A stretch of 64,000 bases of DNA, from positions 10,712-74,711 of the forward strand of contig MFKT01000009.1 of the NCBI GenBank assembly GCA_001781125.1, in the 5' to 3' direction. A program made the translations under genes and the position numbers. A model generated the notes under the pieces. That model was not told where the DNA came from, did not search any database, and was given only the letters and a program-made list of their open reading frames with translations. The DNA comes from Candidatus Kaiserbacteria bacterium RIFCSPHIGHO2_01_FULL_53_29 (GTDB lineage: Bacteria; Patescibacteriota; Minisyncoccia; Phycocordibacterales; UBA2100). This document shows, in pieces, positions 17,751 through 64,000 of this stretch (position 1 is the stretch's first letter; every line of letters begins with the position of its first letter).

Positions 17751-20414
17751 CTATAGCGCATTTTCGATTTGGGCAAGGATGTTTATCAACATCTGTGCAT
17801 CAGTATCCGTAATTTTCCCGTTTGTCGCTTTTTTCGATATCATTGTCGTAAGATTGGCAAGAGCTGCAGTAAGAGCCTGTTTGTTCTCCAATCTGTCGAC
17901 ACGCTTGAGGAGATTATTTTTTAGGCTCGCTTTTATATTCAACGAGATGATTTTTGTCTTAAGTTGAACAAGGACGTCTGCATTGAGCGCCACGCTATCT
18001 GACTGTGCCCCAAGAAGCTCCACAAGTGCCACAATTTCATTCGCATCCGCGGTTGTAATTTTCCCTTTCACTTCCTGATTTGATACTTTCTTCTTGAATT
18101 TCGCGAGAACTTTCGCATTCTTTTGTTTTTTTACCTCGATCTTCTTTTCAAGACCCACAACCTTTTTCAAAAGATCCTGCTTCAACTTGTCTTTGATGTC
18201 GAGGGTTAGGATTTTTTCTTTGATAAGTACAAGTAATTCACTGAGCGATGGTTCAGTGCCATCAGGAGAAATTGTTCGGTCGATCTGATTGTCGCCATTT
18301 ACGTCAACCTCTATAGTTGTCTCCTCCGGTGCGGTGCTTACAACCTCAAACGTGGCATTCGTATTCTCCGTCGTCGGAATATCGGAGAAGCTGGCGACTG
18401 GCGTCGTCGCATCTGCTATAAAATCCTCGATGGTGACCGTCGTGGAGCCGCTGCCGACACCCTGGTAGACAAATGTATAGGTACCCGTTTTCGGGAGAAA
18501 GATGTGCTGGGTCTCGCTGGTGTAAATGAAGCTACTCCCGGGAATATTTCCTAGAATCGTGAGAATCTCGGCTGAAAGATCTTGATTGGGATCAATGCCG
18601 GTGAGGTTCCCGAATTCATCGTACGCGCCGAGAATTACGGGAGAGTAGGTGCTGACTATTAACTCGTCGTCGAGATCGACAACCTGTGGTTTTGCGCCTA
18701 AGACGAAGTTAGTCTGTAGTATATTTTCACCACTGATTACTGACTCTATTAAACTTCGAATTGGACTGGTGCTTAACAAATCTCTATGTTGTGCTTGTTT
18801 GTTACCAGGCTCTCGATATAAATCAAGATTGAAAAAATACGTTTCATCCGCCACCGACGAAATTGCGCTCGGATAAACAACTGTGCTATCGCCTTCGCGG
18901 GTAAACAACGTCCCGTAACTCTGCAAAAAATGACTCGTTCGATACTCCACCGCTTTTACTGTTGGTCTCCCCCAGCCAGCGACCTGCACCACGCGAATGT
19001 GCTCGGGAAACGCATACGTGTCGTACATGGCATGGAAATCGGCAGCACCCCCCATGAGATCAGTCCGCACAACTTCTGGAATGTGCAGAAAGTTCTCGGG
19101 CGGACTCGTACGCGTAACACCTTGCCCCGTCATAAATTCGACGAACGGACTGTAGGTATTAATGAGGTTGCCCCAGAAATTTCTCCAGTTCTGCGTAAAA
19201 CCGACATCCGCGAATGTGATAACCGGATCAGTTACCGCACTAAAATATGCGGGCGATGGAAGGAGGCTGTATGCAGACGGCATGTTTTGCGAAATCGTGC
19301 GCGCTGCCGCGGGTTGCACAATAAAGCCGCTAGCAATTCCTTCACCATCGCCGTGGAGGATTGCAGAAATCGCCTGCGGTGTGCCGAGTTGTGGCGAGCC
19401 AACCATGACAAACGCATCGATGAGGTTATCTTTCCCCTCTTGTTGTAAACGTTTGATGATAGCCTTCCCCAAAAGTCCACCCATCGAGTGCGCAACAATT
19501 GTGACTTTGCCAGATCTCGAATTCGTCGCGAGCTGCTCTATTTTCTCAAGCACATCCACCATGCCACTGGACGTTTTGATGCCATCATCAATTACTTTCT
19601 CCGGCGAGTGTCGCCAGTCGTATGCAAGCGGCAGCCACTCTTCTATTAATCCTTCGCTGACAAGAGCGTCCATAAAGTTCGAAAACGGAGAGTAGATAGG
19701 AGAGCCGTAGAACGTGTCCAAAATGCCATTCACCTGTACATCATTCACACTCTCTCCCGCTTCATTGAGCGCAAGCTGCGGTACGTCATTGCTCCACGCG
19801 GTCGGCGGCCAGAGTGTGTCCGACCCGCTCCTCAAGATACTTCCCTTGATTCCTGGCAAGAAGAGCACGCTAGAGAATCCTACAACGGCACTCTCATCGG
19901 TGACGGTGAAGCGAATGGTTTCTACATAGTCTTCTGCTGATTGCGCGTATACAGTGTCGCCCAACACAAACTGCAGAAATCTCTGATAGAGGCCCCGATT
20001 CACTTGCACGGGTGGTGGTACGTTGTAGACGTCGAGCTCGTAGACACCAGGGACTTCCCACGTGAGGGTGTTCTCGCCGAAGAATCCTCCGATTGCTCCA
20101 ATGAGCTCGCGCGGAGATTGCGGATCGGGTATGCGAAAGAGAATGCCGCTCACGTCGAAAGAAGCACTACCTTCTATGCGGGCGACGTACACGTCTTTTG
20201 AGATATTGAGTGCTACGGGATACGTCCCGTCGTCTTCCATGTATATGCGATCGTCTGAAATGATTTCTCCTGTGTTGTCATCTTCTACGACAGTGCCCCA
20301 CACAAGCTGCGACGAAGCGAATGCGAAAGATGGTAGAGCGCACAGAAGGACGCCCGCGGTCAACGCAACCAAAAATACGTAGTAAAAGCGATTCGAAACT
20401 GTTCTGGCGGACAT
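17751..20414 (-). CDS. secreted alpha/beta-hydrolase, lipase/esterase-like (PGAP1/LCAT-like GHSMGG), with C-terminal tandem coiled repeats
   Basis: Signal peptide. VTIVAHSMGGLLGK nucleophile elbow. Two tandem K-rich repeats of about 65 aa at the C-terminus. Confidence 0.65.
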   Translation of the reverse strand: MSARTVSNRFYYVFLVALTAGVLLCALPSFAFASSQLVWGTVVEDDNTGEIISDDRIYMEDDGTYPVALNISKDVYVARIEGSASFDVSGILFRIPDPQSPRELIGAIGGFFGENTLTWEVPGVYELDVYNVPPPVQVNRGLYQRFLQFVLGDTVYAQSAEDYVETIRFTVTDESAVVGFSSVLFLPGIKGSILRSGSDTLWPPTAWSNDVPQLALNEAGESVNDVQVNGILDTFYGSPIYSPFSNFMDALVSEGLIEEWLPLAYDWRHSPEKVIDDGIKTSSGMVDVLEKIEQLATNSRSGKVTIVAHSMGGLLGKAIIKRLQQEGKDNLIDAFVMVGSPQLGTPQAISAILHGDGEGIASGFIVQPAAARTISQNMPSAYSLLPSPAYFSAVTDPVITFADVGFTQNWRNFWGNLINTYSPFVEFMTGQGVTRTSPPENFLHIPEVVRTDLMGGAADFHAMYDTYAFPEHIRVVQVAGWGRPTVKAVEYRTSHFLQSYGTLFTREGDSTVVYPSAISSVADETYFFNLDLYREPGNKQAQHRDLLSTSPIRSLIESVISGENILQTNFVLGAKPQVVDLDDELIVSTYSPVILGAYDEFGNLTGIDPNQDLSAEILTILGNIPGSSFIYTSETQHIFLPKTGTYTFVYQGVGSGSTTVTIEDFIADATTPVASFSDIPTTENTNATFEVVSTAPEETTIEVDVNGDNQIDRTISPDGTEPSLSELLVLIKEKILTLDIKDKLKQDLLKKVVGLEKKIEVKKQKNAKVLAKFKKKVSNQEVKGKITTADANEIVALVELLGAQSDSVALNADVLVQLKTKIISLNIKASLKNNLLKRVDRLENKQALTAALANLTTMISKKATNGKITDTDAQMLINILAQIENAL

Positions 20415-35570: not shown

Positions 35571-36008
35571 CTACTTGACCCAGCGGTTCGGGCACCTCTC
35601 GTTGCCGTTAGGCAACTTGAAGCAACCCGGGTCCCCGGGCCGGCCCTTGACGAGCCGGTAGCCCTGGGTCCCCGCGACCCGTTGGGTGTCGGCGTTCGGC
35701 TGGTGGCCGCCGATTTCGTAGACGGGACCGCCACCCGTCGCCTGCTGACCGCCACCTGTGACGGTCTGCTGGCCACCACTAGGCGGGGGCGGAGGTAGCA
35801 GGTTCCTTGCCGCCAGCTGCGCTTCGAGGGCGGCGATCCGCGCCGCACCCGCCGTGTCGGCGGGGGACTTGCCGAAAGCCCATTGCCAGGTTGCGACACC
35901 CAGCCAGACAATCAGCACCACCGCCACGACAGCGATCGCGAGCCGGCCGAGCCCGCGGAAGAAATCTCCCCACGTCGAGGTGGGGGCAGTCCAGTGTGCG
36001 TCTGTCAT
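35571..36008 (-). CDS. membrane-anchored secreted protein with C-terminal CFKLPNGNERCPNRW motif
   Basis: N-terminal transmembrane helix. PPPPP linker. Gly/Gln-rich region. The C-terminal motif is shared with ORF 37449..37826. Confidence 0.45.
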   Translation of the reverse strand: MTDAHWTAPTSTWGDFFRGLGRLAIAVVAVVLIVWLGVATWQWAFGKSPADTAGAARIAALEAQLAARNLLPPPPPSGGQQTVTGGGQQATGGGPVYEIGGHQPNADTQRVAGTQGYRLVKGRPGDPGCFKLPNGNERCPNRWVK

Positions 36009-37448: not shown

Positions 37449-37826
37449 TTACTGGTTCGGGCAACGCCGAATTCCGGTCGGCAGGGTGAAGCAGCTCGGG
37501 TGGTTGGGTCCGACCGACCTTCCCGTGCCGACCCTGTTCACTGCCCGCCACTCGGTGCGACGGGTCGTGGTCTGAGTCGTACGACTGCCACCCCGCATCA
37601 CCTGGCCGCCGTATCCCCTTCGGTGGGCATTTTGTTGTTGGCCGCCTTGGTGTGTAGTGCTCCGGTGCTTTTGCGGACACTGGATCCGCATCCCCCACCG
37701 GTTAGTGCAACTGGCATACCGGTGTTGCTGCGCCACCGCCTCGGTCGTGAACGAAACCGGAGCCGGAGCGAGCAAAAACGTACCTGCGATCGCGAGAGCG
37801 ACAAACGAAACTTGAAACTTGCGCAT
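37449..37826 (-). CDS. small secreted protein with C-terminal CFTLPTGIRRCPNQ motif (start MRKFQVSF)
   Basis: GGAGAA SD. Signal peptide. The mature part is Gln/Thr/Arg-rich. The ORF opens at 38144 but the earlier part lacks a signal peptide. Confidence 0.45.
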   Translation of the reverse strand: MRKFQVSFVALAIAGTFLLAPAPVSFTTEAVAQQHRYASCTNRWGMRIQCPQKHRSTTHQGGQQQNAHRRGYGGQVMRGGSRTTQTTTRRTEWRAVNRVGTGRSVGPNHPSCFTLPTGIRRCPNQ

Positions 37827-37904
37827 GATTTTCTCCCTTGCGCTGCCGCAAACTCCCCATCGGAGTTTCAACGGACTTACAAGAATGATACATCTAAAAT
37901 GACC

Positions 37905-38885
37905 GGACGTCAAGGGGTCGTAATGGTTCAATAGCTTGGAACCACCCGTGGCTCCAATATGACGTACATGGCATACAGCAAGAATCCAGAGCTCCCGAAG
38001 GTGCGGCGGGAAGCGGTCCGGTTGGTCAAACAGGAAGGATGGTCGACAAGGAAAGTGGCACGGCACTTTGGGTACACGCACAGCGCGATCGTGAAGTGGT
38101 GCGCAAAGGATCCGACAGGAGGGTTCAGACGAATCGAGACGCAATCATCGAAACCGAAGAGAAGTCCTCGGGCACTCTCGCGCGACGTGGTCTCGGCCAT
38201 CATCAAAGAACGAGTTGGCAGACGGCGGTGCGCCGAGCATGTGTACCACGCGCTCGTGAAGCATGGAGTCGGAGTATCGCTCTCGTCCGTGAAGCGCACG
38301 CTCGACCGATGTCATTTGCGCAAGAAACGCAGTCCGTGGAAGCGTCCGCACGACTTCACACCGCGACCGGAGGCGGCCTTCTGTGGAGCCCTGCTTGAGC
38401 TCGATACCATCCATATCATCGCACCGGACGGCTCAAGGATATACATATACACCATCATCGATCTGTATTCGCGGTGGGCGTACGCAGAGGTGGTGGAAAG
38501 AATCGGCGCGCACCGAAGCGCCGGGTTTGCGCGCAGAGCACAGGAGGCTGCACCATTCCGCTTCGTCATGGTCCAAACAGACCACGGGAGCGAGTTCTCA
38601 ACCCGCTTCACGCATCGTCTCCTGCAAAAAGATATTCACCATCGACACAGCCGTGTCCGACAGAAAGACGACCAAGCCCACATCGACCGATTCAACCGCA
38701 CGATCCAGGAAGAGTGTCTGGATCGGGTCACGCACACCGTCGCATCATTCAAACGTGCCCTGCCTCCCTATTTGCGTTGGTACAACACCGAGCGTACGCA
38801 CATGGGGATCAATTATCAAACGCCCCTTGATCTGGTTCCAAGGTCTTGACCTTATTTAGGGTCTGGTAAAAACCCCGCTTGAAAG
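37905..38885 (+). mobile_element. IS481-family insertion sequence (approximate ends; only weak terminal inverted repeats TCAAG-GGGT seen)
   Basis: A transposase gene with short flanks. Ends could not be defined confidently. Confidence 0.45.
37959..38849 (+). CDS. IS481-family (IS3 superfamily) DDE transposase
   Basis: N-terminal HTH. rve integrase core. C-terminal LPPYLRWYNTERTHMGINYQTPLDLV is typical of IS481. Confidence 0.8.
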   Translation: MTYMAYSKNPELPKVRREAVRLVKQEGWSTRKVARHFGYTHSAIVKWCAKDPTGGFRRIETQSSKPKRSPRALSRDVVSAIIKERVGRRRCAEHVYHALVKHGVGVSLSSVKRTLDRCHLRKKRSPWKRPHDFTPRPEAAFCGALLELDTIHIIAPDGSRIYIYTIIDLYSRWAYAEVVERIGAHRSAGFARRAQEAAPFRFVMVQTDHGSEFSTRFTHRLLQKDIHHRHSRVRQKDDQAHIDRFNRTIQEECLDRVTHTVASFKRALPPYLRWYNTERTHMGINYQTPLDLVPRS

Positions 38886-38928: not shown

Positions 38929-39210
38929 TCAACGGTCTTGGGCGCCGTGGAAAATGCCAAGAATAATTACCTCACCTTTTCCTCTCCTCAACTCATACAC
39001 GATCACAAACGGTAAACCTTTGACCAAAAGTTCATACGTACGTGGCGCAGAGCCGATCCGACCCATGCGCGGGAAAAGACCGAGGGAGCGAACGGTGAGA
39101 TGGATACGAACAACAACGCCGACCGCTGCCGAGGGATTTTGATCTTTTATGTATGAATATATTTCCGCAATGTGTCTGCGTGCTTCAAGGGTGTACTGGG
39201 GGTCCTTCAT
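38929..39210 (-). CDS. parE: ParE/RelE-family type II toxin
   Basis: 93 aa. C-terminus VIILGIFHGAQD is typical of ParE. 4-nt overlap with the upstream antitoxin. Confidence 0.75.
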   Translation of the reverse strand: MKDPQYTLEARRHIAEIYSYIKDQNPSAAVGVVVRIHLTVRSLGLFPRMGRIGSAPRTYELLVKGLPFVIVYELRRGKGEVIILGIFHGAQDR

Positions 39211-39440
39211 AGACCGCAGCCCTTCCAGAGCGCGGCCATTTCTCGCTTTGTCGCCAAACGTGTTTTGCCGCTGCGCAGGTTGCGCTGAATACGTTTTACT
39301 TCTCGGACCTGTTCGTCTGTAAGATGATACTCGGCATTGCCGCTTACCATATGGACAAACAATGCCTGCGCTGCTGCGTTTTGGTCTTCGGCAGGCAACT
39401 CGCGGAGTTGTTCGATCGCTTTTTCAAGCAGTTTTGTCAT
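39207..39440 (-). CDS. type II antitoxin (ParD/addiction-module component)
   Basis: 77 aa. Precedes and overlaps the toxin. LRELPAEDQ motif. Confidence 0.6.
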   Translation of the reverse strand: MTKLLEKAIEQLRELPAEDQNAAAQALFVHMVSGNAEYHLTDEQVREVKRIQRNLRSGKTRLATKREMAALWKGCGL

Positions 39441-39486: not shown

Positions 39487-39504
39487 GTCATTTCCTTCCC
39501 TACC
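39487..39504. repeat. direct repeat GTCATTTCCTTCCCTACC, upstream flank of the ParDE cassette
   Basis: Pairs with 38907..38924. Overlaps the stop of ORF 39500..40375. Confidence 0.6.
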
Positions 39505-40375
39505 TGTTCATTTTCATCTCCCTCCCCATCACTATTGAACGGCCGACATCGAGTGTCTGGCCGACATCGGCAACGTGTCCGACGGCGGCGGTGTGACCGA
39601 CATTGGTGTCATGCCCGACGGCGACATTGCGACCGACATCGACGTCCTTCCCGACATCGAGTGTATATCCCCCATCGACTGCACGACCGAGGGCAAGCGT
39701 CTTGCCAACATTCACGGTATGACCAACGGTAACGTCGCGTCCTAGGTCAACAGCCCGCCCGACAATGATAATTCTTCCGCTTGCAACAGTGTGCCCGACT
39801 TCGATGGGGCGGCTAACGATGACCGTGCGCCCTACATTGGCATCGTACCCCATATCCACGGGGCGTCCGACGATGGCGTCATACCCGACATCGGCGAGAC
39901 GTCCGACATCGGCTTCAAAGCCCACGATAGCGAGACGTCCGACATCGGCGATATACCCGACGGGGAGTGAGCGGCCGACAGGGGCAAGGTACCCGACAGC
40001 AGCAAAATATCCGACATTGGCAATATGACCGACGGGGAGTAAGAAGCCGACAGGGGTGTAACGGCCGACGTTTGCAAAACGCCCGACATTGGCCCTATAC
40101 CCAACACCTACAGAATGTCCTACGTACGCCGACTGGCCGACCAAAGCGCGATCGCCGACCGCAGCTCGGTATCCGATAGCTGCGAATTCTCCTACCGGAG
40201 CGCGGTAGCCGATCGGAACAATTTGCCCAATTTGACTTACACTCGGCGAGGCAAGGACGCAGTCGCACGTTGCCGCGAAGGCGATTTGTGCCGAACCAAC
40301 GAGCGACGCGCAGAGGACTCCCCCAACAAGGGCGGACAGATATATTTTTCTGCTTTTGAGAATGTTGTTAAACAT
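39500..40375 (-). CDS. secreted hexapeptide-repeat protein (about 40 consecutive xVGxxx repeats; predicted left-handed beta-helix)
   Basis: Signal peptide. Near-perfect 6-residue periodicity ([AVLI]-x-V-G-[RYH]-x) from residue about 50 to the C-terminus. Confidence 0.65.
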   Translation of the reverse strand: MFNNILKSRKIYLSALVGGVLCASLVGSAQIAFAATCDCVLASPSVSQIGQIVPIGYRAPVGEFAAIGYRAAVGDRALVGQSAYVGHSVGVGYRANVGRFANVGRYTPVGFLLPVGHIANVGYFAAVGYLAPVGRSLPVGYIADVGRLAIVGFEADVGRLADVGYDAIVGRPVDMGYDANVGRTVIVSRPIEVGHTVASGRIIIVGRAVDLGRDVTVGHTVNVGKTLALGRAVDGGYTLDVGKDVDVGRNVAVGHDTNVGHTAAVGHVADVGQTLDVGRSIVMGREMKMNR

Positions 40376-40378
40376 ATT

Positions 40379-41068
40379 TTATAGTTCGCCGACGAAATCA
40401 GCTTCAAGAATGTAGCGGGCGCTTTTGCCGGTGAGCGTGTCGCAGGTGACGAGTGTGAGCTTGGCGGCTGTCGCGGAGAGATCAATGGTGACATCGTCGT
40501 TGACATCCGCCTTACGTATTGATGTGACGTTGTAGAGGTACGCTTTGCCCCCGCCCTCTATCGTGATGGTGTCTCCGGCTTTCAACTCCGGGATGCGATT
40601 GAACGCACGGAACATTTGGTTGCGGACGATCGGCAGGTGCGAGGAGTGCGCGAAGATTATCATGTTGCCGCTTGCCCCTAGCTTTGCGGAATCCACATAG
40701 CGCGCGGGACCCTTCTGCAAAAGTGTGTCGAGGGCGTTGAGATCTTTCGTCGCCGGGTTTTGGACCGGAAGATCGAGACCGATCGCGGAGATTTTGATAC
40801 GCTCCGGAAGAACTGCGACTACGGCGGGAGTCGCCTGCCCCGTACCTCCATCTGGATTCATTTGGACATTCAATTCGCCCAGCTGCGGGAGATCTGCGAG
40901 AGAGACGACATCTGCGCGTGAAGGTGCTGGGGAACCGTCGATGTAGTTGGGTACGAAACCAACCGAGTCGGCCGCGCTGACCGTACAGAAAAACACCACG
41001 ACGACCGCAGCAAAAAAGACCCGTTTGGGGGGTTTTTGGCGATTTGTGTATTCTGCGGTAGCACTCAT
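40379..41068 (-). CDS. sortase family transpeptidase (membrane-anchored)
   Basis: N-terminal transmembrane helix. Active-site TLVTC and conserved His (IFAHSSH). 4 nt upstream of the hexapeptide protein. Confidence 0.75.
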   Translation of the reverse strand: MSATAEYTNRQKPPKRVFFAAVVVVFFCTVSAADSVGFVPNYIDGSPAPSRADVVSLADLPQLGELNVQMNPDGGTGQATPAVVAVLPERIKISAIGLDLPVQNPATKDLNALDTLLQKGPARYVDSAKLGASGNMIIFAHSSHLPIVRNQMFRAFNRIPELKAGDTITIEGGGKAYLYNVTSIRKADVNDDVTIDLSATAAKLTLVTCDTLTGKSARYILEADFVGEL

Positions 41069-41156
41069 ATAACGTCGGGATAGTACACTATAAATCTCTA
41101 CTTGTCAATCCTTGAGGCTTGACAAATCAGTCCCAATATGTGAGGATACCGACGAT

Positions 41157-42215
41157 ATGGCAGAACAGATCGAGGTCACAAAGACCACCGACACCACCCA
41201 CACGAGTGCGCATGCGCGAACACAACCGCAGCCTCGCCCCGCCGACGGCGGGCCGAGCATGCTTTCGAGCGTCCTCGCCATCGTCGGGTTCATCATTATC
41301 ATCATTATCATCATTTGGGGTCTTTTCCACATCGCAACTCTTTCACAACCGTGGCTCTCTTCCCTCTTCAACAAAACGACCAACACCTCGATCCAGGTCA
41401 GCGCCCCCACGACCGCGACATCGAGCATCCCATTCACGGTGAGCTGGAAATATTATACGACGGAAAAAGGCGCCTACGCATTTTTGTATCAATGTAAAAG
41501 CGGATTCCATTTTGAAGTGGCATCTGCCGGTGGTACGGCAAAAAGCCTGCCCTGCGGCGCGGCGATAACGGTACCGACAGACAATGCGATGTCGATCACC
41601 CCCGTCCTCTCCGGCTCGGGGCCGCTCGCTGTACCCCTTTCGATCATCTTCATGCCGAGCCCCGCCGTAGGCGGGGCGAGCGCAACAAGTTCGAAGCAGG
41701 CACAAGGCACTGCTACGGTCGTCATCAACGCAGGAACATTTGTAGAACTTGCGCAGCCTGTCACGACGAAACCCGCTACAGTGGAGACCTCTTCAAAACC
41801 TGTAACCCCCGTAAAACCGCACGTGAGCGGTCCGGCCGACCTTTCAGTGCGCATCGTTGCAGTAAATGTTGATGCATCCGGCAACGGTATCGCCACTTTC
41901 GATATAGCGAACGTCGGCGGCAGCTCGAGTGGCATCTACTACTTCAACGCACAACTTCCAATGCAGACCGGATATACCTACAACTCACCGCCGCAATCAC
42001 CGCTTGGCCCCGGCGACCACATCGTCAACACCTTGCGCTTCTCGCAGGCAGTGAATGGCGTCTTCAGTATCGCGCTCAACGTATCCGATGCGAATCAAAA
42101 CAATAACTACGCATCACAATCCATCTCGATGCCCTCCTCCTACGCTCCAGGCTACGGCGGGACGCAGTACAACAACTACAACTACGCGCCGCAACCGTAC
42201 CAGTACGCATACTAA
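41157..42215 (+). CDS. single-pass membrane-anchored surface protein with poly-Ile transmembrane helix and Tyr/Asn-rich C-terminus (ORF opens at 41112)
   Basis: Transmembrane helix VLAIVGFIIIIIIIIWGLF is encoded by an (ATCATT)n repeat. Large extracellular Thr/Ser-rich domain. Confidence 0.5.
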   Translation: MAEQIEVTKTTDTTHTSAHARTQPQPRPADGGPSMLSSVLAIVGFIIIIIIIIWGLFHIATLSQPWLSSLFNKTTNTSIQVSAPTTATSSIPFTVSWKYYTTEKGAYAFLYQCKSGFHFEVASAGGTAKSLPCGAAITVPTDNAMSITPVLSGSGPLAVPLSIIFMPSPAVGGASATSSKQAQGTATVVINAGTFVELAQPVTTKPATVETSSKPVTPVKPHVSGPADLSVRIVAVNVDASGNGIATFDIANVGGSSSGIYYFNAQLPMQTGYTYNSPPQSPLGPGDHIVNTLRFSQAVNGVFSIALNVSDANQNNNYASQSISMPSSYAPGYGGTQYNNYNYAPQPYQYAY

Positions 42216-42309: not shown

Positions 42310-42882
42310 CTAACGTTTTCGCAGGCCAAATTCCTTTCGCAAGTGAGAATCCCCTTCAAGTTCGTCTACAATCATATATAGAACATCCCTTCCGATCTTG
42401 AAATCGGCTTTCAGAAGGACAATCAGGTCCTCGCAATCATACGGATATACCCACACGCTGTCCTGCAGACGCACGAAGCCGATTCCCATGACTGTGCGGC
42501 GGATCTTATCGCGCAATGATTTGCGATACTCCGGAACATCAAAGATAAGCACACGCCATCGTCCGTCCCACCGCTTCGGCTTTGTAATTGAATAGCGGGA
42601 CTCTAACAATGCGGTCGCGCCGACACCTTTCGGTGTGAGTCGAAGAAAACCCTTGTTCCACGTAAGTAGTCCTTGATCGGTCAGCCTTTTACGAGTACGT
42701 CCTATGACACTCGGATCGCTTGATCCTTTTGGGAGGAGCCCCATTTTATAGAGCGCCATCGGCAAGTTGGGCGCCATTACGACAACGCCAGCGAGTGCCG
42801 AGAGTTTGATGACTGTAAGAATCGCACGTTTGAGATCGCGCCTTCGCTTCCGTTTTCTTCCCGACTCTTCGATCGTCCCCAT
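42310..42882 (-). CDS. PaaX-like transcriptional regulator
   Basis: KRWDGRWRVLIFDVPEYRKSLRDKIRRTVMGIGFVRLQDSVWVYP matches the PaaX C-terminal signature (WDG.W, GFG). Confidence 0.55.
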   Translation of the reverse strand: MGTIEESGRKRKRRRDLKRAILTVIKLSALAGVVVMAPNLPMALYKMGLLPKGSSDPSVIGRTRKRLTDQGLLTWNKGFLRLTPKGVGATALLESRYSITKPKRWDGRWRVLIFDVPEYRKSLRDKIRRTVMGIGFVRLQDSVWVYPYDCEDLIVLLKADFKIGRDVLYMIVDELEGDSHLRKEFGLRKR

Positions 42883-61698: not shown

Positions 61699-64000
61699 TC
61701 ACGGCGTTGGAGTTTCGGCAGGGGGAGGCTCGGGTGTCGGCTCCGGAGCGGGCGGAGGCGTCGGTTCAGGTTCTGGCTGTGGCTCGCCGGAGCCTTCGGC
61801 GGACTGTGTCTCGCCAGAGGCGGACTCCGTCCCGCCGACGGCGGAGGCGGCTGATGGTTCAGGTTCAGGAGCGGGTTCATCTGCAGGTGCTTCTTCCGCG
61901 GGCGGACTCTCCGCAGGAGGTTCTTCTGCGAGGGAGTCCTCGGGAGTGTCCGCTGGCGGATTCTCGGCGGGTGGGGATTCTTCTGGCGCATCTTCCGCCG
62001 GAGGCGTCTCCTCCGAAGGAGGTGACGCCTCAGGAGTTGGCGACGGAGTTGGTTCTGGAGCTGGTGCCGGAGATGCAGAGCCCCCACCGCCGGAGCTTCC
62101 GGAGGAAGCTCCGGCGGCTCCCGCAACTTGCCCTTGCAAAAGCGATTTGAGCTGCTCTTCGTCGACGCATGTCTCCCCGATGCAGAGCTTGTCGGTAGTG
62201 ACCTCGCGCGCGAAGACCTTGTCGAAGATGCCGGTTACCGCGTAGATGGCTGTCTTGTACACTTCGACCACCATGTCGCCGATCGATTGCATGGCACTCT
62301 TCAGTCCATTCGAGGCATCGGCGAATGCCGCGTACCATGGCGTCTTACCCGCAAACTCTTCGCGTGGCGTCGAGGTTGCTGACATTATCTCCATCGCGCT
62401 CGTCGTCGCCACAAGGTCCTCAAACTTCGCGTCGAGCTCTTGCACCGCTCCGGCAAGCACGGCCGTCATGTTCTCATACTGGACGCTGCGTGGTGTCACG
62501 CCGTCGCTCTCGAAGCTGACAAGCCGCGGGTCGAGCTGACTAACCTCTTCAGCAATGAACCCGAGGTGCGTCGTCTGGTCATCCGTGAAGTCGGCATTGT
62601 ACACAAACGACACCGGGCGCAGTTGTTTGACCAACGCGAGGTTCTCGGCCGATGAAAGCGAGGTGATGCTGTTTTTGTAGCGTTGCGAGGAGACGGTGCA
62701 CGCTCCGGAAACGTAGGTGATGTTTCCGGTAGACGTCGTGTGGCACACGGTCGTGTTGCCTCCGCTGTTGCCTAATACCGCGAAGAGGTCGGCCGGGCTC
62801 GCGTCAAGGTCCGACCAGTTGATGTAGGTGTTGCCTCCGTCGCCCGCGTTGATGACGATGTTGCCGCTACTATCCGAGCGTATACTGCCTTTTATCGCGT
62901 TGCTATGCGAGAACGCAATATTCGTCTGGCCGCCGGTGTTATCCAGAGTCAGATGCGCGTTGCTTACCGTCGCGACGGCAGTAGCGTTTGATTTTGACAG
63001 CGTCAGAAGTCCCGTCGGCGTCGTCGTCCCGATGCCGACGTTGCCGTCTTTATTGATCCGCATCGTCTCTGCGTGCGAGGTTCCCTGATGATGAGTCTCA
63101 AAGGCGATTTCCTGAGACGTACCCCCAGCATCTGAAATAGCGTCAAAAAGGATGGCGGCTCCCCCCGTGACACCAAGGTTGTAGGTAGTACCTGCTGTGA
63201 GGAACGAGATGCGCCGGTCGGTGGTATCTGTGCTGTCAAGTCTGATACCGCCCGTTATAGTCAGCTTTTCACCCATGCTCGTCGCCCCAATGCCGACGTT
63301 GCCGGAGGATGTTATGACAATGCCGGTGGCGTTTGCCCCGATCGCAGCATCGCTGTTGGTGTTGGTGATATAGAAGTTGCTGTCAGCCGAATTAATACCT
63401 ACCTTATACTCGACCGTATTCGGGTCGTGGAAGCGGATGCCCACGTCAGCATTGTCTTTGTAGAGTTCAAGCAGTTCACTCGGACTCGTCGCCCCGATGC
63501 CGACGTTGCCGTTGCCTGCCACCGTAAAGAGGTCAACGCTACCGACATCCACATTCAAAATTTTATTCGTTGAAGCGCCCCCTTCACCGCGGATTAGCAG
63601 GCCGTGCGCGGTCGCCGCCGTTGAACGATTATGAATTACTTGAGTGTAGCCCGTTGCATTTGTCTCCCATACAAGGCCGTTCGTCCCTGCGGGGGTGCCA
63701 GCCTGATCACCGGGATTATTTGGGGTATTGGCAAGGAGATTGATCGGACTCGTCGTCCCGATGCCGACGTTGCCGTTACCCGTTACCGTGAGAGTCGGGG
63801 TTGAGTTAAGCGTACCGGCGTCCATGGTGTAGAAACGCAAGTCTGTGTCCGAACTGCCGGGTAGATAAGACTGGATACGGGCCAGGCCTTCCCCGTTCCC
63901 GTGTGCAAAGTCGATAGCGTTGGTGTCGGCAACCGAAAACGAGGTATTGGTAAGGATAATTTTCTGCTCACCGGAACCGGAAATGCTTAGCTTACTTTGC
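61699..64000 (-). CDS. tail-fibre-like repeat protein with Peptidase_S74 intramolecular-chaperone domain and Pro/Glu-rich C-terminal tail; N-terminus beyond window
   Basis: GNGNVGIG(T/A)TSP repeats. S74-like block LRPVSFVYNADFTDDQTTHLGFIAEEVSQLDPRLV. The ORF stays open upstream of the annotated TTG, through position 64000. Confidence 0.65.
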   Translation of the reverse strand, partial: QSKLSISGSGEQKIILTNTSFSVADTNAIDFAHGNGEGLARIQSYLPGSSDTDLRFYTMDAGTLNSTPTLTVTGNGNVGIGTTSPINLLANTPNNPGDQAGTPAGTNGLVWETNATGYTQVIHNRSTAATAHGLLIRGEGGASTNKILNVDVGSVDLFTVAGNGNVGIGATSPSELLELYKDNADVGIRFHDPNTVEYKVGINSADSNFYITNTNSDAAIGANATGIVITSSGNVGIGATSMGEKLTITGGIRLDSTDTTDRRISFLTAGTTYNLGVTGGAAILFDAISDAGGTSQEIAFETHHQGTSHAETMRINKDGNVGIGTTTPTGLLTLSKSNATAVATVSNAHLTLDNTGGQTNIAFSHSNAIKGSIRSDSSGNIVINAGDGGNTYINWSDLDASPADLFAVLGNSGGNTTVCHTTSTGNITYVSGACTVSSQRYKNSITSLSSAENLALVKQLRPVSFVYNADFTDDQTTHLGFIAEEVSQLDPRLVSFESDGVTPRSVQYENMTAVLAGAVQELDAKFEDLVATTSAMEIMSATSTPREEFAGKTPWYAAFADASNGLKSAMQSIGDMVVEVYKTAIYAVTGIFDKVFAREVTTDKLCIGETCVDEEQLKSLLQGQVAGAAGASSGSSGGGGSASPAPAPEPTPSPTPEASPPSEETPPAEDAPEESPPAENPPADTPEDSLAEEPPAESPPAEEAPADEPAPEPEPSAASAVGGTESASGETQSAEGSGEPQPEPEPTPPPAPEPTPEPPPAETPTP

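Follow-up and report, generated by a model that had tools for sequence, protein, structure and literature searches.

An exported hexapeptide-repeat protein encoded directly behind a sortase in Candidatus Kaiserbacteria and related CPR bacteria: a putative beta-solenoid of the cell surface

A sortase gene and a hexapeptide-repeat gene in a Kaiserbacteria-like genome

The DNA analysed here, called the window below, is a stretch of 64,000 nucleotides from contig MFKT01000009.1 of Candidatus Kaiserbacteria bacterium RIFCSPHIGHO2_01_FULL_53_29, a Kaiserbacteria-like, uncultured and ultra-small member of the Candidate Phyla Radiation (CPR). It is a housekeeping region of the chromosome, which carries rpoB/rpoC, dnaE, dnaG, rpoD, smc and gyrB. 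Its reverse strand encodes, one behind the other, a membrane-anchored sortase and a secreted protein built of hexapeptide repeats, whose gene we call hex. The features of this gene pair are as follows:

41080 to 41108, minus strand: promoter-like site TTGACA-17-TACTAT upstream of the sortase start, matching 10 of 12 positions and proposed from the consensus match alone
40379 to 41068, minus strand: sortase gene (stop codon included), 229 amino acids (aa) with an N-terminal membrane anchor, assigned by PF04203 and TIGR01076
40442 to 40456, minus strand: TLVTC active-site motif, sortase residues 205-209, the sole such motif in the window
39500 to 40375, minus strand: hex gene (stop codon included), encoding the secreted hexapeptide-repeat protein of 291 aa, delimited by its open reading frame (ORF) and repeat anatomy
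40274 to 40375, minus strand: predicted signal peptide, residues 1-34 (MFNNILKSRKIYLSALVGGVLCASLVGSAQIAFA, followed by A), read from the sequence, with an equivalent N-terminus in all relatives
40259 to 40267, minus strand: Cys37-Asp-Cys39 pair just past the predicted cleavage site, recurring in relatives
39512 to 40231, minus strand: array of 40 hexapeptides V-G-[RYH]-x-[AVLI]-x, residues 49-288, defined by periodicity, Tandem Repeats Finder (TRF) and strands in an AlphaFold2 (AF2) model

The stop codon of the sortase (TAA, 40381-40379) is separated from the start codon of hex (ATG, 40375-40373) by 3 nt, rather than by the 4 nt given in an earlier sequence-only reading of this DNA. A promoter-like site precedes the sortase, and neither a comparable site nor a terminator-like hairpin was found between the two genes. 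To judge from these signals and the 3-nt gap, the sortase and the repeat gene are likely to be co-transcribed as a two-gene operon, as the same reading had supposed. A read-through fusion of the two proteins was also considered, given that both genes of the window lie in the same frame, but it was rejected because the intergenic lengths in the relatives are not multiples of three.

Anatomy of the repeat protein

The N-terminus of the repeat protein reads by eye as a Sec signal peptide, with K7, R9 and K10 in the n-region, a hydrophobic core, and A-F-A at residues 32-34 before the Ala at position 35. The tetrapeptide T-C-D-C comes next, after this Ala. A lipoprotein reading of these cysteines in the window protein was rejected, since they are found at +3 and +5 past the A-x-A motif and not at the +1 position of a lipobox.

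From residue 49 onwards, 40 consecutive hexapeptides follow each other with no register shift whatsoever. Position 1 of the unit is Val in 31 of the 40 copies, with Ile (three), Leu (two) and Met (two) as further residues, and position 2 is Gly in 39. Position 3 is occupied by Arg (15), Tyr (9) or His (7) in 31 of the 40 units, position 4 by Thr in seven units, position 5 by Ala (18), Val (11), Leu (5) or Ile (3), so that Ala and Val make up 29 of 40, and position 6 by Asp, Ala, Pro or Asn. The claim of about 40 perfect repeats thus holds for the number of units and for their spacing, but not for the residues themselves; and the Arg/Tyr/His position, which had been numbered 5 in the frame xVGxxx, directly follows the Gly and is position 4 of that frame.

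The regularity of the array is far beyond what composition would produce: identity between residues six positions apart is 0.42, compared with 0.097±0.019 in shuffles of the same residues (maximum 0.158 in 2000 shuffles), and no other ORF in the window has such a period-6 pattern. At the DNA level, TRF reports periods of 18 and 36 nt with 60-79% matches. An 18-residue super-period of three units was sought and is absent, and the solely prominent unit lag is 6 (36 residues, z 3.5), which more likely reflects the history of duplications. The two halves of the array differ in character, the N-terminal one being more hydrophobic and aromatic (grand average of hydropathy, GRAVY, 0.56; 14 Tyr and Phe) and the C-terminal one more acidic and rich in His (GRAVY 0.12; 13 Asp and Glu). 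The window protein contains neither a catalytic region nor any other non-repeat region that could hold an active site; together with the signal peptide read by eye, this anatomy agrees with the original description of an exported protein made of repeats, with no catalytic domain.

Conservation of the gene pair

Orthologues of the sortase, 52-66% identical to it, were found in 16 species-representative genomes, every one of which is a metagenome-assembled CPR genome labelled Candidatus Kaiserbacteria, Paceibacterota, Parcubacteria, Patescibacteria or "uncultured Saccharibacteria". The same sortase occurs in 228 metagenome stretches, 80 of which were examined. At every locus the DNA downstream of the sortase stop codon was scanned, and loci in which 300 nt or more of such DNA was available, 82 in number, were regarded as informative. 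An ORF with a signal peptide and a strong period of six stands behind the sortase in 49 of these 82 loci. After removal of identical sortases, 45 loci have the repeat gene, 28 lack it and 13 are uninformative, so that the pair is present in 45 of the 73 informative non-redundant loci. The repeat ORF of the relatives mostly starts between -4 and +12 nt from the sortase stop.

On a neighbour-joining tree of the sortases, the loci with the repeat gene are scattered over the entire tree, the deepest clade included, and those without it form one large clade and a few scattered branches. This distribution fits an ancestral pair with several subsequent losses, and we conclude that the association of the sortase with the repeat gene is ancient and conserved within this lineage. 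In loci that lack the repeat gene, the place behind the sortase is usually taken by a gene for a small secreted Cys-containing protein of the kind that otherwise comes after the repeat gene.

The same picture is obtained when one starts from the repeat protein. The five relatives found by protein searches (P0063, P0065 and P0151-P0153) are all encoded directly behind the same sortase, which is annotated as such upstream of P0063, P0152 and P0153 and is represented upstream of P0065 and P0151 by cut genes that end in TLVTCDTLT. Thus, all 54 family members observed (those of the 49 sortase-adjacent loci and the five protein-search finds) directly follow this sortase. One locus (L106), where the gene ahead of the repeat gene carries no sortase call, was considered as an exception and dismissed, as there is an assembly gap within the same sortase. 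The exact 291-aa protein of the window recurs in several metagenome assemblies, on a total of 23 contigs and with an unchanged gene arrangement each time, and the source genomes of the family as a whole were assembled from many different metagenomes. The sequence-only reading had made itself contingent on the two genes not being separated in all related genomes; with the pair in 45 of 73 loci, and in all five cases when approached from the repeat side, no such separation is observed.

The repeat-protein family

The family comprises at least 47 distinct members of the same architecture, in which the signal peptide is usually followed by a less regular, aromatic-rich stretch of Gly, Tyr and Pro, and then by the array. 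The common frame of the arrays can be written as [V/I/T]-[G/A/S]-[Y/R/H]-[P/S/A]-[V/I]-x, with flavours such as VG[RYH]PV, IAHAVD, PIGYAA and T[GS]YS[VI]P. A pair of cysteines of the form C-x(1-6)-C stands just past the signal peptide in 25 of the 47 members, and none of the members has a Cys inside the array. One subgroup of the family shares a conserved break or loop, DLYGPGKLFALV, with a Lys in it, and V[TS]FA[KR] or GYTLAK forms the C-terminus of many members; both the loop and such an end are absent from the window protein.

The repeat proteins diverge far faster than the sortases they accompany, being only 25-41% identical to the window protein, compared with 52-66% for the sortases. Moreover, the number of repeats varies between close strains: in pairs of nearly identical loci or sortases the protein has 167 aa in one and 173 aa in the other (L004 and L027), or 174 and 186 aa (L074 and L075), i.e. 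the lengths differ by one or two whole hexapeptide units. Fast divergence combined with length change by whole units is what one typically sees in surface proteins that are exposed.

Several antifreeze proteins are short-period beta-solenoids, and the original suggestion of an ice-binding role deserves consideration in this context, the more so as four relatives (L005, L010, L015 and L090) are rich in Thr and Ser. The beta-solenoid antifreeze proteins and adhesins, such as those of insects, the ice-binding adhesin of Marinomonas and the head of YadA, resemble the repeat protein in being exported, enzyme-free, short-period rods; they have, however, other repeat lengths and other ladder residues (Thr/Asn, or Ca2+ sites), and no significant sequence or fold match of the repeat protein to them was found. 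Regular T-x-T or T-x-N ladders are absent from the window protein, Thr is infrequent at position 4, position 3 is taken by Arg, Tyr or His, and the family is fixed in a sortase operon of bacteria from many different metagenomes. The sequence therefore lends no support to ice binding, and an antifreeze-type function seems to us very unlikely indeed.

The size of the family cannot be estimated from the word-indexed protein search, in which low-complexity proteins swamp the candidates: the window protein gave no matches, profile A1 retrieved P0007 alone and profile A3 retrieved four proteins. In 665 kb of related-locus DNA, the sole other protein-like ORF with a period of six is a second array in locus L092 (7522-8637, plus strand), which encodes a different secreted protein with Y-S-T-P-I-D repeats and a C-D-W-C pair past the signal peptide. 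The sortase-adjacent repeat gene of that locus is 2.3 kb upstream of this ORF, which runs off the end of the locus.

Fold prediction and similarity to known proteins

The pattern of the array had been identified from the sequence as that of the left-handed beta-helix (LβH). Indeed, 30 of the 40 units conform to the canonical rule [LIV]-[GAED]-x2-[STAV]-x, and a 29-residue PROSITE-style hexapeptide pattern matches the window protein at residues 61, 85 and 145 and also occurs in 40 of 49 relatives. No curated model recognises the repeat protein above threshold; the sole Pfam match is LbH_EIF2B, with 26.9 bits against a cut-off of 54. The same model appears below threshold in 13 of 17 relatives, and Hexapep in one of the 17 (E 0.008). 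On the other hand, a profile of 17 members compared with all PDB sequences gave 44 matches with E<=1, almost all of them LβH proteins, including LpxD (1.2e-5), QdtC, LpxA, GlmU, gamma-carbonic anhydrases, and maltose, serine and streptogramin acetyltransferases. An exhaustive search of a library of 1.8 billion proteins retrieved 305 proteins with E<=1e-3, the best of which (P0001, P0006 and P0010) are above-threshold Hexapep proteins in Pfam, many of them phage-like.

An AF2 model was calculated from an alignment of five family members, three secreted proteins with the same array (P0007, P0003 and P0020) and 69 generic hexapeptide proteins. In this model residues from about 45 to 200 have values of the predicted local distance difference test (pLDDT) of 70-91, with strands of two residues, which occupy positions 6 and 1 in every unit. 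Of the continuous beta-helix that structure prediction was expected to confirm, the model thus shows strands every six residues in this part of the protein, with a pLDDT below 50 for residues 205-291. Foldseek found no significant match in the PDB and none to an LpxA-like structure; its best non-significant matches are nearly all parallel beta-helix proteins, which are right-handed. A library of viral folds likewise gave no significant match, with TM-scores of at most 0.3 and a root-mean-square deviation (RMSD) above 7 Å. On this evidence the repeat protein is likely to be a beta-solenoid, and its sequence supports an assignment to the LβH class. Because the curated thresholds were not reached and Foldseek returned no LpxA-like structure, we prefer to call it "LβH-like" rather than a member of the LβH family; of the original claim, the profile matches and the six-residue strands support the hexapeptide pattern, whereas left-handedness and a turn of 18 residues gain no support from the structural comparison.

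The comparison with the LβH proteins (LpxA, LpxD, GlmU, gamma-carbonic anhydrases, and sugar and xenobiotic acetyltransferases; PF00132/PF14602) is instructive in both directions. The repeat protein shares their six-residue rule. LβH proteins have a flat-strand position within the hexapeptide unit, and the strands of the AF2 model appear to fall on the same unit positions. However, the known LβH proteins are cytoplasmic enzymes, in which 4-10 turns of the helix are combined with catalytic loops or extra domains, whereas the repeat protein is exported, consists of repeats alone, has Arg, Tyr or His at the exposed position 3, and remains below every curated cut-off. That it is nonetheless an ordinary hexapeptide acyltransferase could be argued from subthreshold matches of the window protein to LpxD, LpxA and NeuD in NCBIfam, but these reach only 22-36 bits (cut-offs 160-240) and span the repeat part alone, and the signal peptide is present while a non-repeat catalytic region is absent. 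Overlapping ORFs in other frames of the repeat would similarly invite the suspicion of a spurious ORF in repetitive DNA, were it not that 47 distinct relatives keep the reading frame along with the signal peptide and the array, that changes in length are multiples of six residues, and that the GC content by codon position of the repeat gene resembles that of the sortase gene. Both the enzyme and the artefact are contradicted by the data and are barely conceivable.

By sequence, the repeat protein is matched best by hexapeptide arrays of phages, namely small proteins of the P0006/P0010 type and tail-fibre-like proteins of the P0001/P0018 type, with E values from 6e-40 to 1e-18 in the library of 1.8 billion proteins, and phrog_5353. 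Like the repeat protein, they possess long unbroken arrays and no enzyme domain; unlike it, they lack a signal peptide, use the unit I-G-[DN]-x-A-x, carry extra domains at the C- or N-terminus, and are not associated with a sortase. To judge by the sequences, the likeness may be convergent and due to the repeat alone. Closer in flavour are P0007, P0003 and P0020, secreted proteins of other bacteria, in which a signal peptide is followed by the same VGR[PS]V-flavoured array. In P0007 (L099, 479-1924) the array is joined to a barnase-type RNase (PF00545) and acts as a linker, whereas in the window it makes up the whole protein; in P0003 it precedes a weak, subthreshold match to an alpha/beta-hydrolase, and in P0020 it is combined with other domains. 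No sortase was found beside P0007, on a contig of just 2 kb.

The phage matches raise the possibility that the repeat protein forms a self-assembling fibre, either a trimeric triple beta-helix, as in phage fibres and needles, held by an N-terminal cystine knot and about 19 nm long for 40 units, or an amyloid-like stack of molecules joined end to end. Such a fibre might be among the thin filaments observed on CPR cells. The strongest sequence matches indeed include phage array proteins (P0001, E 6e-40; phrog_5353, E 2.2e-26), and a YadA-like left-handed roll is among the weak matches in the viral fold library, as are phage fibre proteins. A fibre would also give a role to the Cys pair at the mature N-terminus, in a family that has no Cys elsewhere, and to the exposed position 4, which in the N-terminal half is often hydrophobic (Phe, Leu, Ile or Tyr), as at an interface. 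However, the strands are already paired in the model of the monomer, the viral fold matches are as poor as stated above, and about half of the family does without the Cys pair. Furthermore, the filaments identified so far on a cultivated CPR bacterium consist of pilins of the immunoglobulin (Ig) fold (bioRxiv 10.64898/2026.03.03.709456). We therefore regard the fibre as quite unlikely, although it is compatible with the interpretation of the repeat protein as a surface rod that is developed below. The CPR "Pam" pili were themselves compared with the repeat protein and discarded, as their Ig-fold pilins are unrelated to it (bioRxiv 10.64898/2026.03.03.709456); the features of pilins that were looked for (a pilin-motif Lys of the YPKN type, Ig-like domains, LPXTG) are all absent from the repeat protein.

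The sortase and its likely substrates

The gene upstream of hex is a genuine sortase, as had been recognised from its TLVTC motif: it scores 67.2 bits against PF04203 (cut-off 26.6) and 43.1 against TIGR01076 (cut-off 39.35), and the catalytic triad of H141, C209 (within TLVTC) and R218 is invariant in 13 aligned orthologues. It does not fall into any of the NCBIfam class models C, D, E, F and GN, all of which score far below their cut-offs (best class E, 43 bits against 160). Its nearest solved relative is a remote one, a class C enzyme with E 2.4e-6.

The genomic surroundings of the sortase are very stable. In 48 loci the gyrB gene precedes the sortase on the same strand. A steadier companion than the repeat gene, and the most constant of all, is a gene transcribed divergently from the sortase:

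41157 to 42215, plus strand: membrane-anchored protein of 352 aa, divergent from the sortase, and found by tblastn upstream and divergent in 67 related loci

This protein has an N-terminal membrane anchor and a C-terminal tail rich in Tyr, Asn, Gln and Pro, and it carries no sorting signal; neither Pfam nor NCBIfam models match it, and one relative has a weak CARDB mark. Between it and gyrB the window contains a gene for a PaaX-like protein (42310-42882, minus strand; PaaX_M, E 7e-20), which occupies that position in just about seven related loci.

In the SrtB-IsdC system and in class C pilus clusters, a sortase gene adjoins the gene of a secreted surface protein that bears an LPXTG-type signal. 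The gene order here is alike, but the repeat protein differs in having no such signal, and its sortase belongs to a housekeeping block near gyrB and not to an accessory island. The window protein ends in VGRSIVMGREMKMNR and contains no LPXTG-like motif, no C-terminal hydrophobic segment and no basic tail. No relative contains an LPXTG-type pentapeptide or a C-terminal membrane segment either; their C-termini are formed by a repeat unit or end in FAK, LAK or WGR. Strings of the type P-T-G and P-x-T-V-G in relatives were examined as candidate signals and rejected as one residue too short or too long. Hence the remark that the protein has no classical LPXTG was correct and extends to its relatives, and the search for homologs with sorting signals that it invited ends with none that carries one. 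Among the features of a sortase substrate, the repeat protein has the signal peptide alone.

The same scan did find sorting signals in two other proteins, which serve as positive controls. In locus L012 (7087-8061, plus strand) a secreted, Tyr-rich protein of 324 aa with GGDLYY repeats, whose gene adjoins the sortase, carries LPYTG followed by a hydrophobic segment and RLRLVG. In locus L018 (1-294, plus strand) an ORF with PPPTYV repeats, located 62 nt before the sortase start, ends in IPYTG, a hydrophobic segment and a basic tail. Their position beside the sortase suggests the motif that it reads, and the sortase of this lineage most likely processes ordinary [L/I]PYTG substrates.

The idea that assembly of the repeat protein depends on the sortase is accordingly left without support: no member of the family has a sorting signal, ordinary [L/I]PYTG substrates adjoin the sortase in two loci, and the sortase persists in 28 non-redundant loci that lack the repeat gene. 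It could still be maintained that the adjacent enzyme has the repeat protein as a non-canonical client, by virtue of an unrecognised motif or, more plausibly, as an amine acceptor, whose N-terminus or a Lys would receive [L/I]PYTG proteins and which would then be a covalent scaffold of the CPR surface. The asymmetry of the pair, with all 54 repeat genes behind the sortase but the sortase also occurring without them, fits such a one-way dependence. The enzyme stands outside all curated classes, with a class C (polymerising) sortase as its nearest, albeit weak, solved relative, and the subgroup loop as well as the FAK and LAK ends of many members offer lysines. On the other hand, no Lys or N-terminal residue is conserved family-wide, both the loop and the FAK end are absent from the window protein, there is neither LPXTG nor a C-terminal membrane segment, the P-T-G and P-x-T-V-G strings are mis-spaced, and the constant adjacency can also be explained by origin and persistence in one syntenic slot. 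We consider a client relationship unlikely.

A proposed surface rod that would not be cleaved by the sortase

The interpretation we favour, and to which we would give about an even chance, is that the repeat protein is a non-enzymatic, fast-evolving beta-solenoid rod or adhesin of the cell surface, co-transcribed with a housekeeping-type sortase that does not cleave it. The protein would be exported by the Sec pathway and, after removal of the signal peptide, the array would fold into a rigid rod. As a monomeric LβH, with 18 residues per turn of 4.8 Å, the rod would be about 6 nm long, its interior lined by the Val of position 1 and the Ala or Val of position 5, and its exterior bearing stacked ladders of the planar side chains of Arg, Tyr and His at position 3. 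The N-terminal Cys pair could form a disulfide or cross-link chains. At the cell surface the rod could serve as a structural spacer or as an adhesin, and it may bind glycans or anionic polymers, either of the own wall or of a host cell; since its N-terminal half is hydrophobic and aromatic and its C-terminal half acidic and rich in His, the two ends may face different partners. The occurrence of the same array between the signal peptide and other domains in unrelated secreted proteins fits the role of a spacer or stalk. The sortase would work on [L/I]PYTG proteins encoded elsewhere, the repeat protein not being a classical substrate, and the two would be made together because both serve the assembly of the surface. 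The chaplins of Streptomyces, in which short, unanchored subunits with no sorting signal co-assemble with long ones anchored by sortase, may be seen as a precedent, by analogy, for a signal-less partner of a sortase.

Several observations weigh against this interpretation. The sortase is embedded in a stable block (gyrB in 48 loci, the divergent membrane protein in 67), so that the adjacency may in part be general synteny; with synteny this strong on the upstream side of the sortase, the persistence of a neighbour is in itself no proof of a functional link. The repeat gene is absent from 28 of the 73 non-redundant loci while the sortase stays, which means that it is dispensable for the sortase. 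As regards the fold, the alignment behind the AF2 model consists mostly of generic hexapeptide proteins and the model therefore leans towards their fold, residues 205-291 have a pLDDT below 50, and AF2 run on the single sequence yields a pLDDT of only 33. Finally, the Cys pair is restricted to 25 of the 47 members.

It is tempting to go further and to imagine that the sortase builds the repeat protein into the CPR surface by a route that dispenses with LPXTG, the protein being either an acceptor or a disulfide-stapled trimeric fibre on base partners that are anchored by the sortase. We regard this as a distinctly improbable speculation; if true, ultra-small bacteria would possess a type of surface filament, linked to a sortase, that is new and specific to them.

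Other genes of the window

Directly after the repeat gene, the window contains a ParD-like/ParE toxin-antitoxin pair (38929-39440, minus strand) and an IS481-type transposase (rve, LZ_Tnp_IS481; 37959-38849, plus strand). The transposase was found in none of the related loci and ParDE in two (L070 and L073), and the insertion is present on all contigs shown with the exact repeat protein. It is a recent insertion of a mobile element into the variable zone behind the operon. Small secreted Cys proteins are encoded behind the sortase or the repeat gene in many related loci. In the window, two small proteins (37449-37829 and 35571-36008, both minus strand) have an N-terminal hydrophobic segment and a common C-terminal Cys loop, C-F-x-L-P-x-G-x-x-R-C-P-N, their C-termini reading SCFTLPTGIRRCPNQ and GCFKLPNGNERCPNRWVK, respectively.

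Two further genes of the window are worth mentioning. One (61699-63840, minus strand) encodes a protein of 713 aa with a Peptidase_S74 domain, which is known as the intramolecular chaperone of trimeric fibres of the endosialidase type. It matches phage tail-fibre PHROGs with E 6e-17 and is situated in otherwise housekeeping surroundings; it may be what is left of a prophage, or else a fibre that the cell has domesticated. The other (17751-20414, minus strand) encodes a protein of 887 aa with a domain of the LCAT type (lecithin:cholesterol acyltransferase/lipase, E 1e-18), which is unusual for a small CPR genome.

Conclusions

Much of bacterial diversity belongs to the CPR bacteria, or Patescibacteria, which live attached to other cells and whose surface is poorly understood; to our knowledge, the role of their sortases has been largely unstudied. 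Sortases are present in more than half of CPR genomes (PMC6744442). A full-text search of the literature, whose coverage leaves out most subscription journals, found no description of the sortase-repeat pair. The family and its conservation are in our view solid and new: an exported, purely repetitive hexapeptide protein is fixed behind a CPR-specific sortase.

The family has remained locked behind one sortase lineage throughout its diversification, and yet it evolves fast and with a shifting number of repeats. As far as the sequences indicate, a hexapeptide fold otherwise found mainly in cytoplasmic enzymes is here used as an extracellular building block. The family offers a concrete and cheap target for the prediction or determination of structures and for in vitro sortase assays, and if the link to the sortase is functional, it would widen the notion of what a sortase partner can be.

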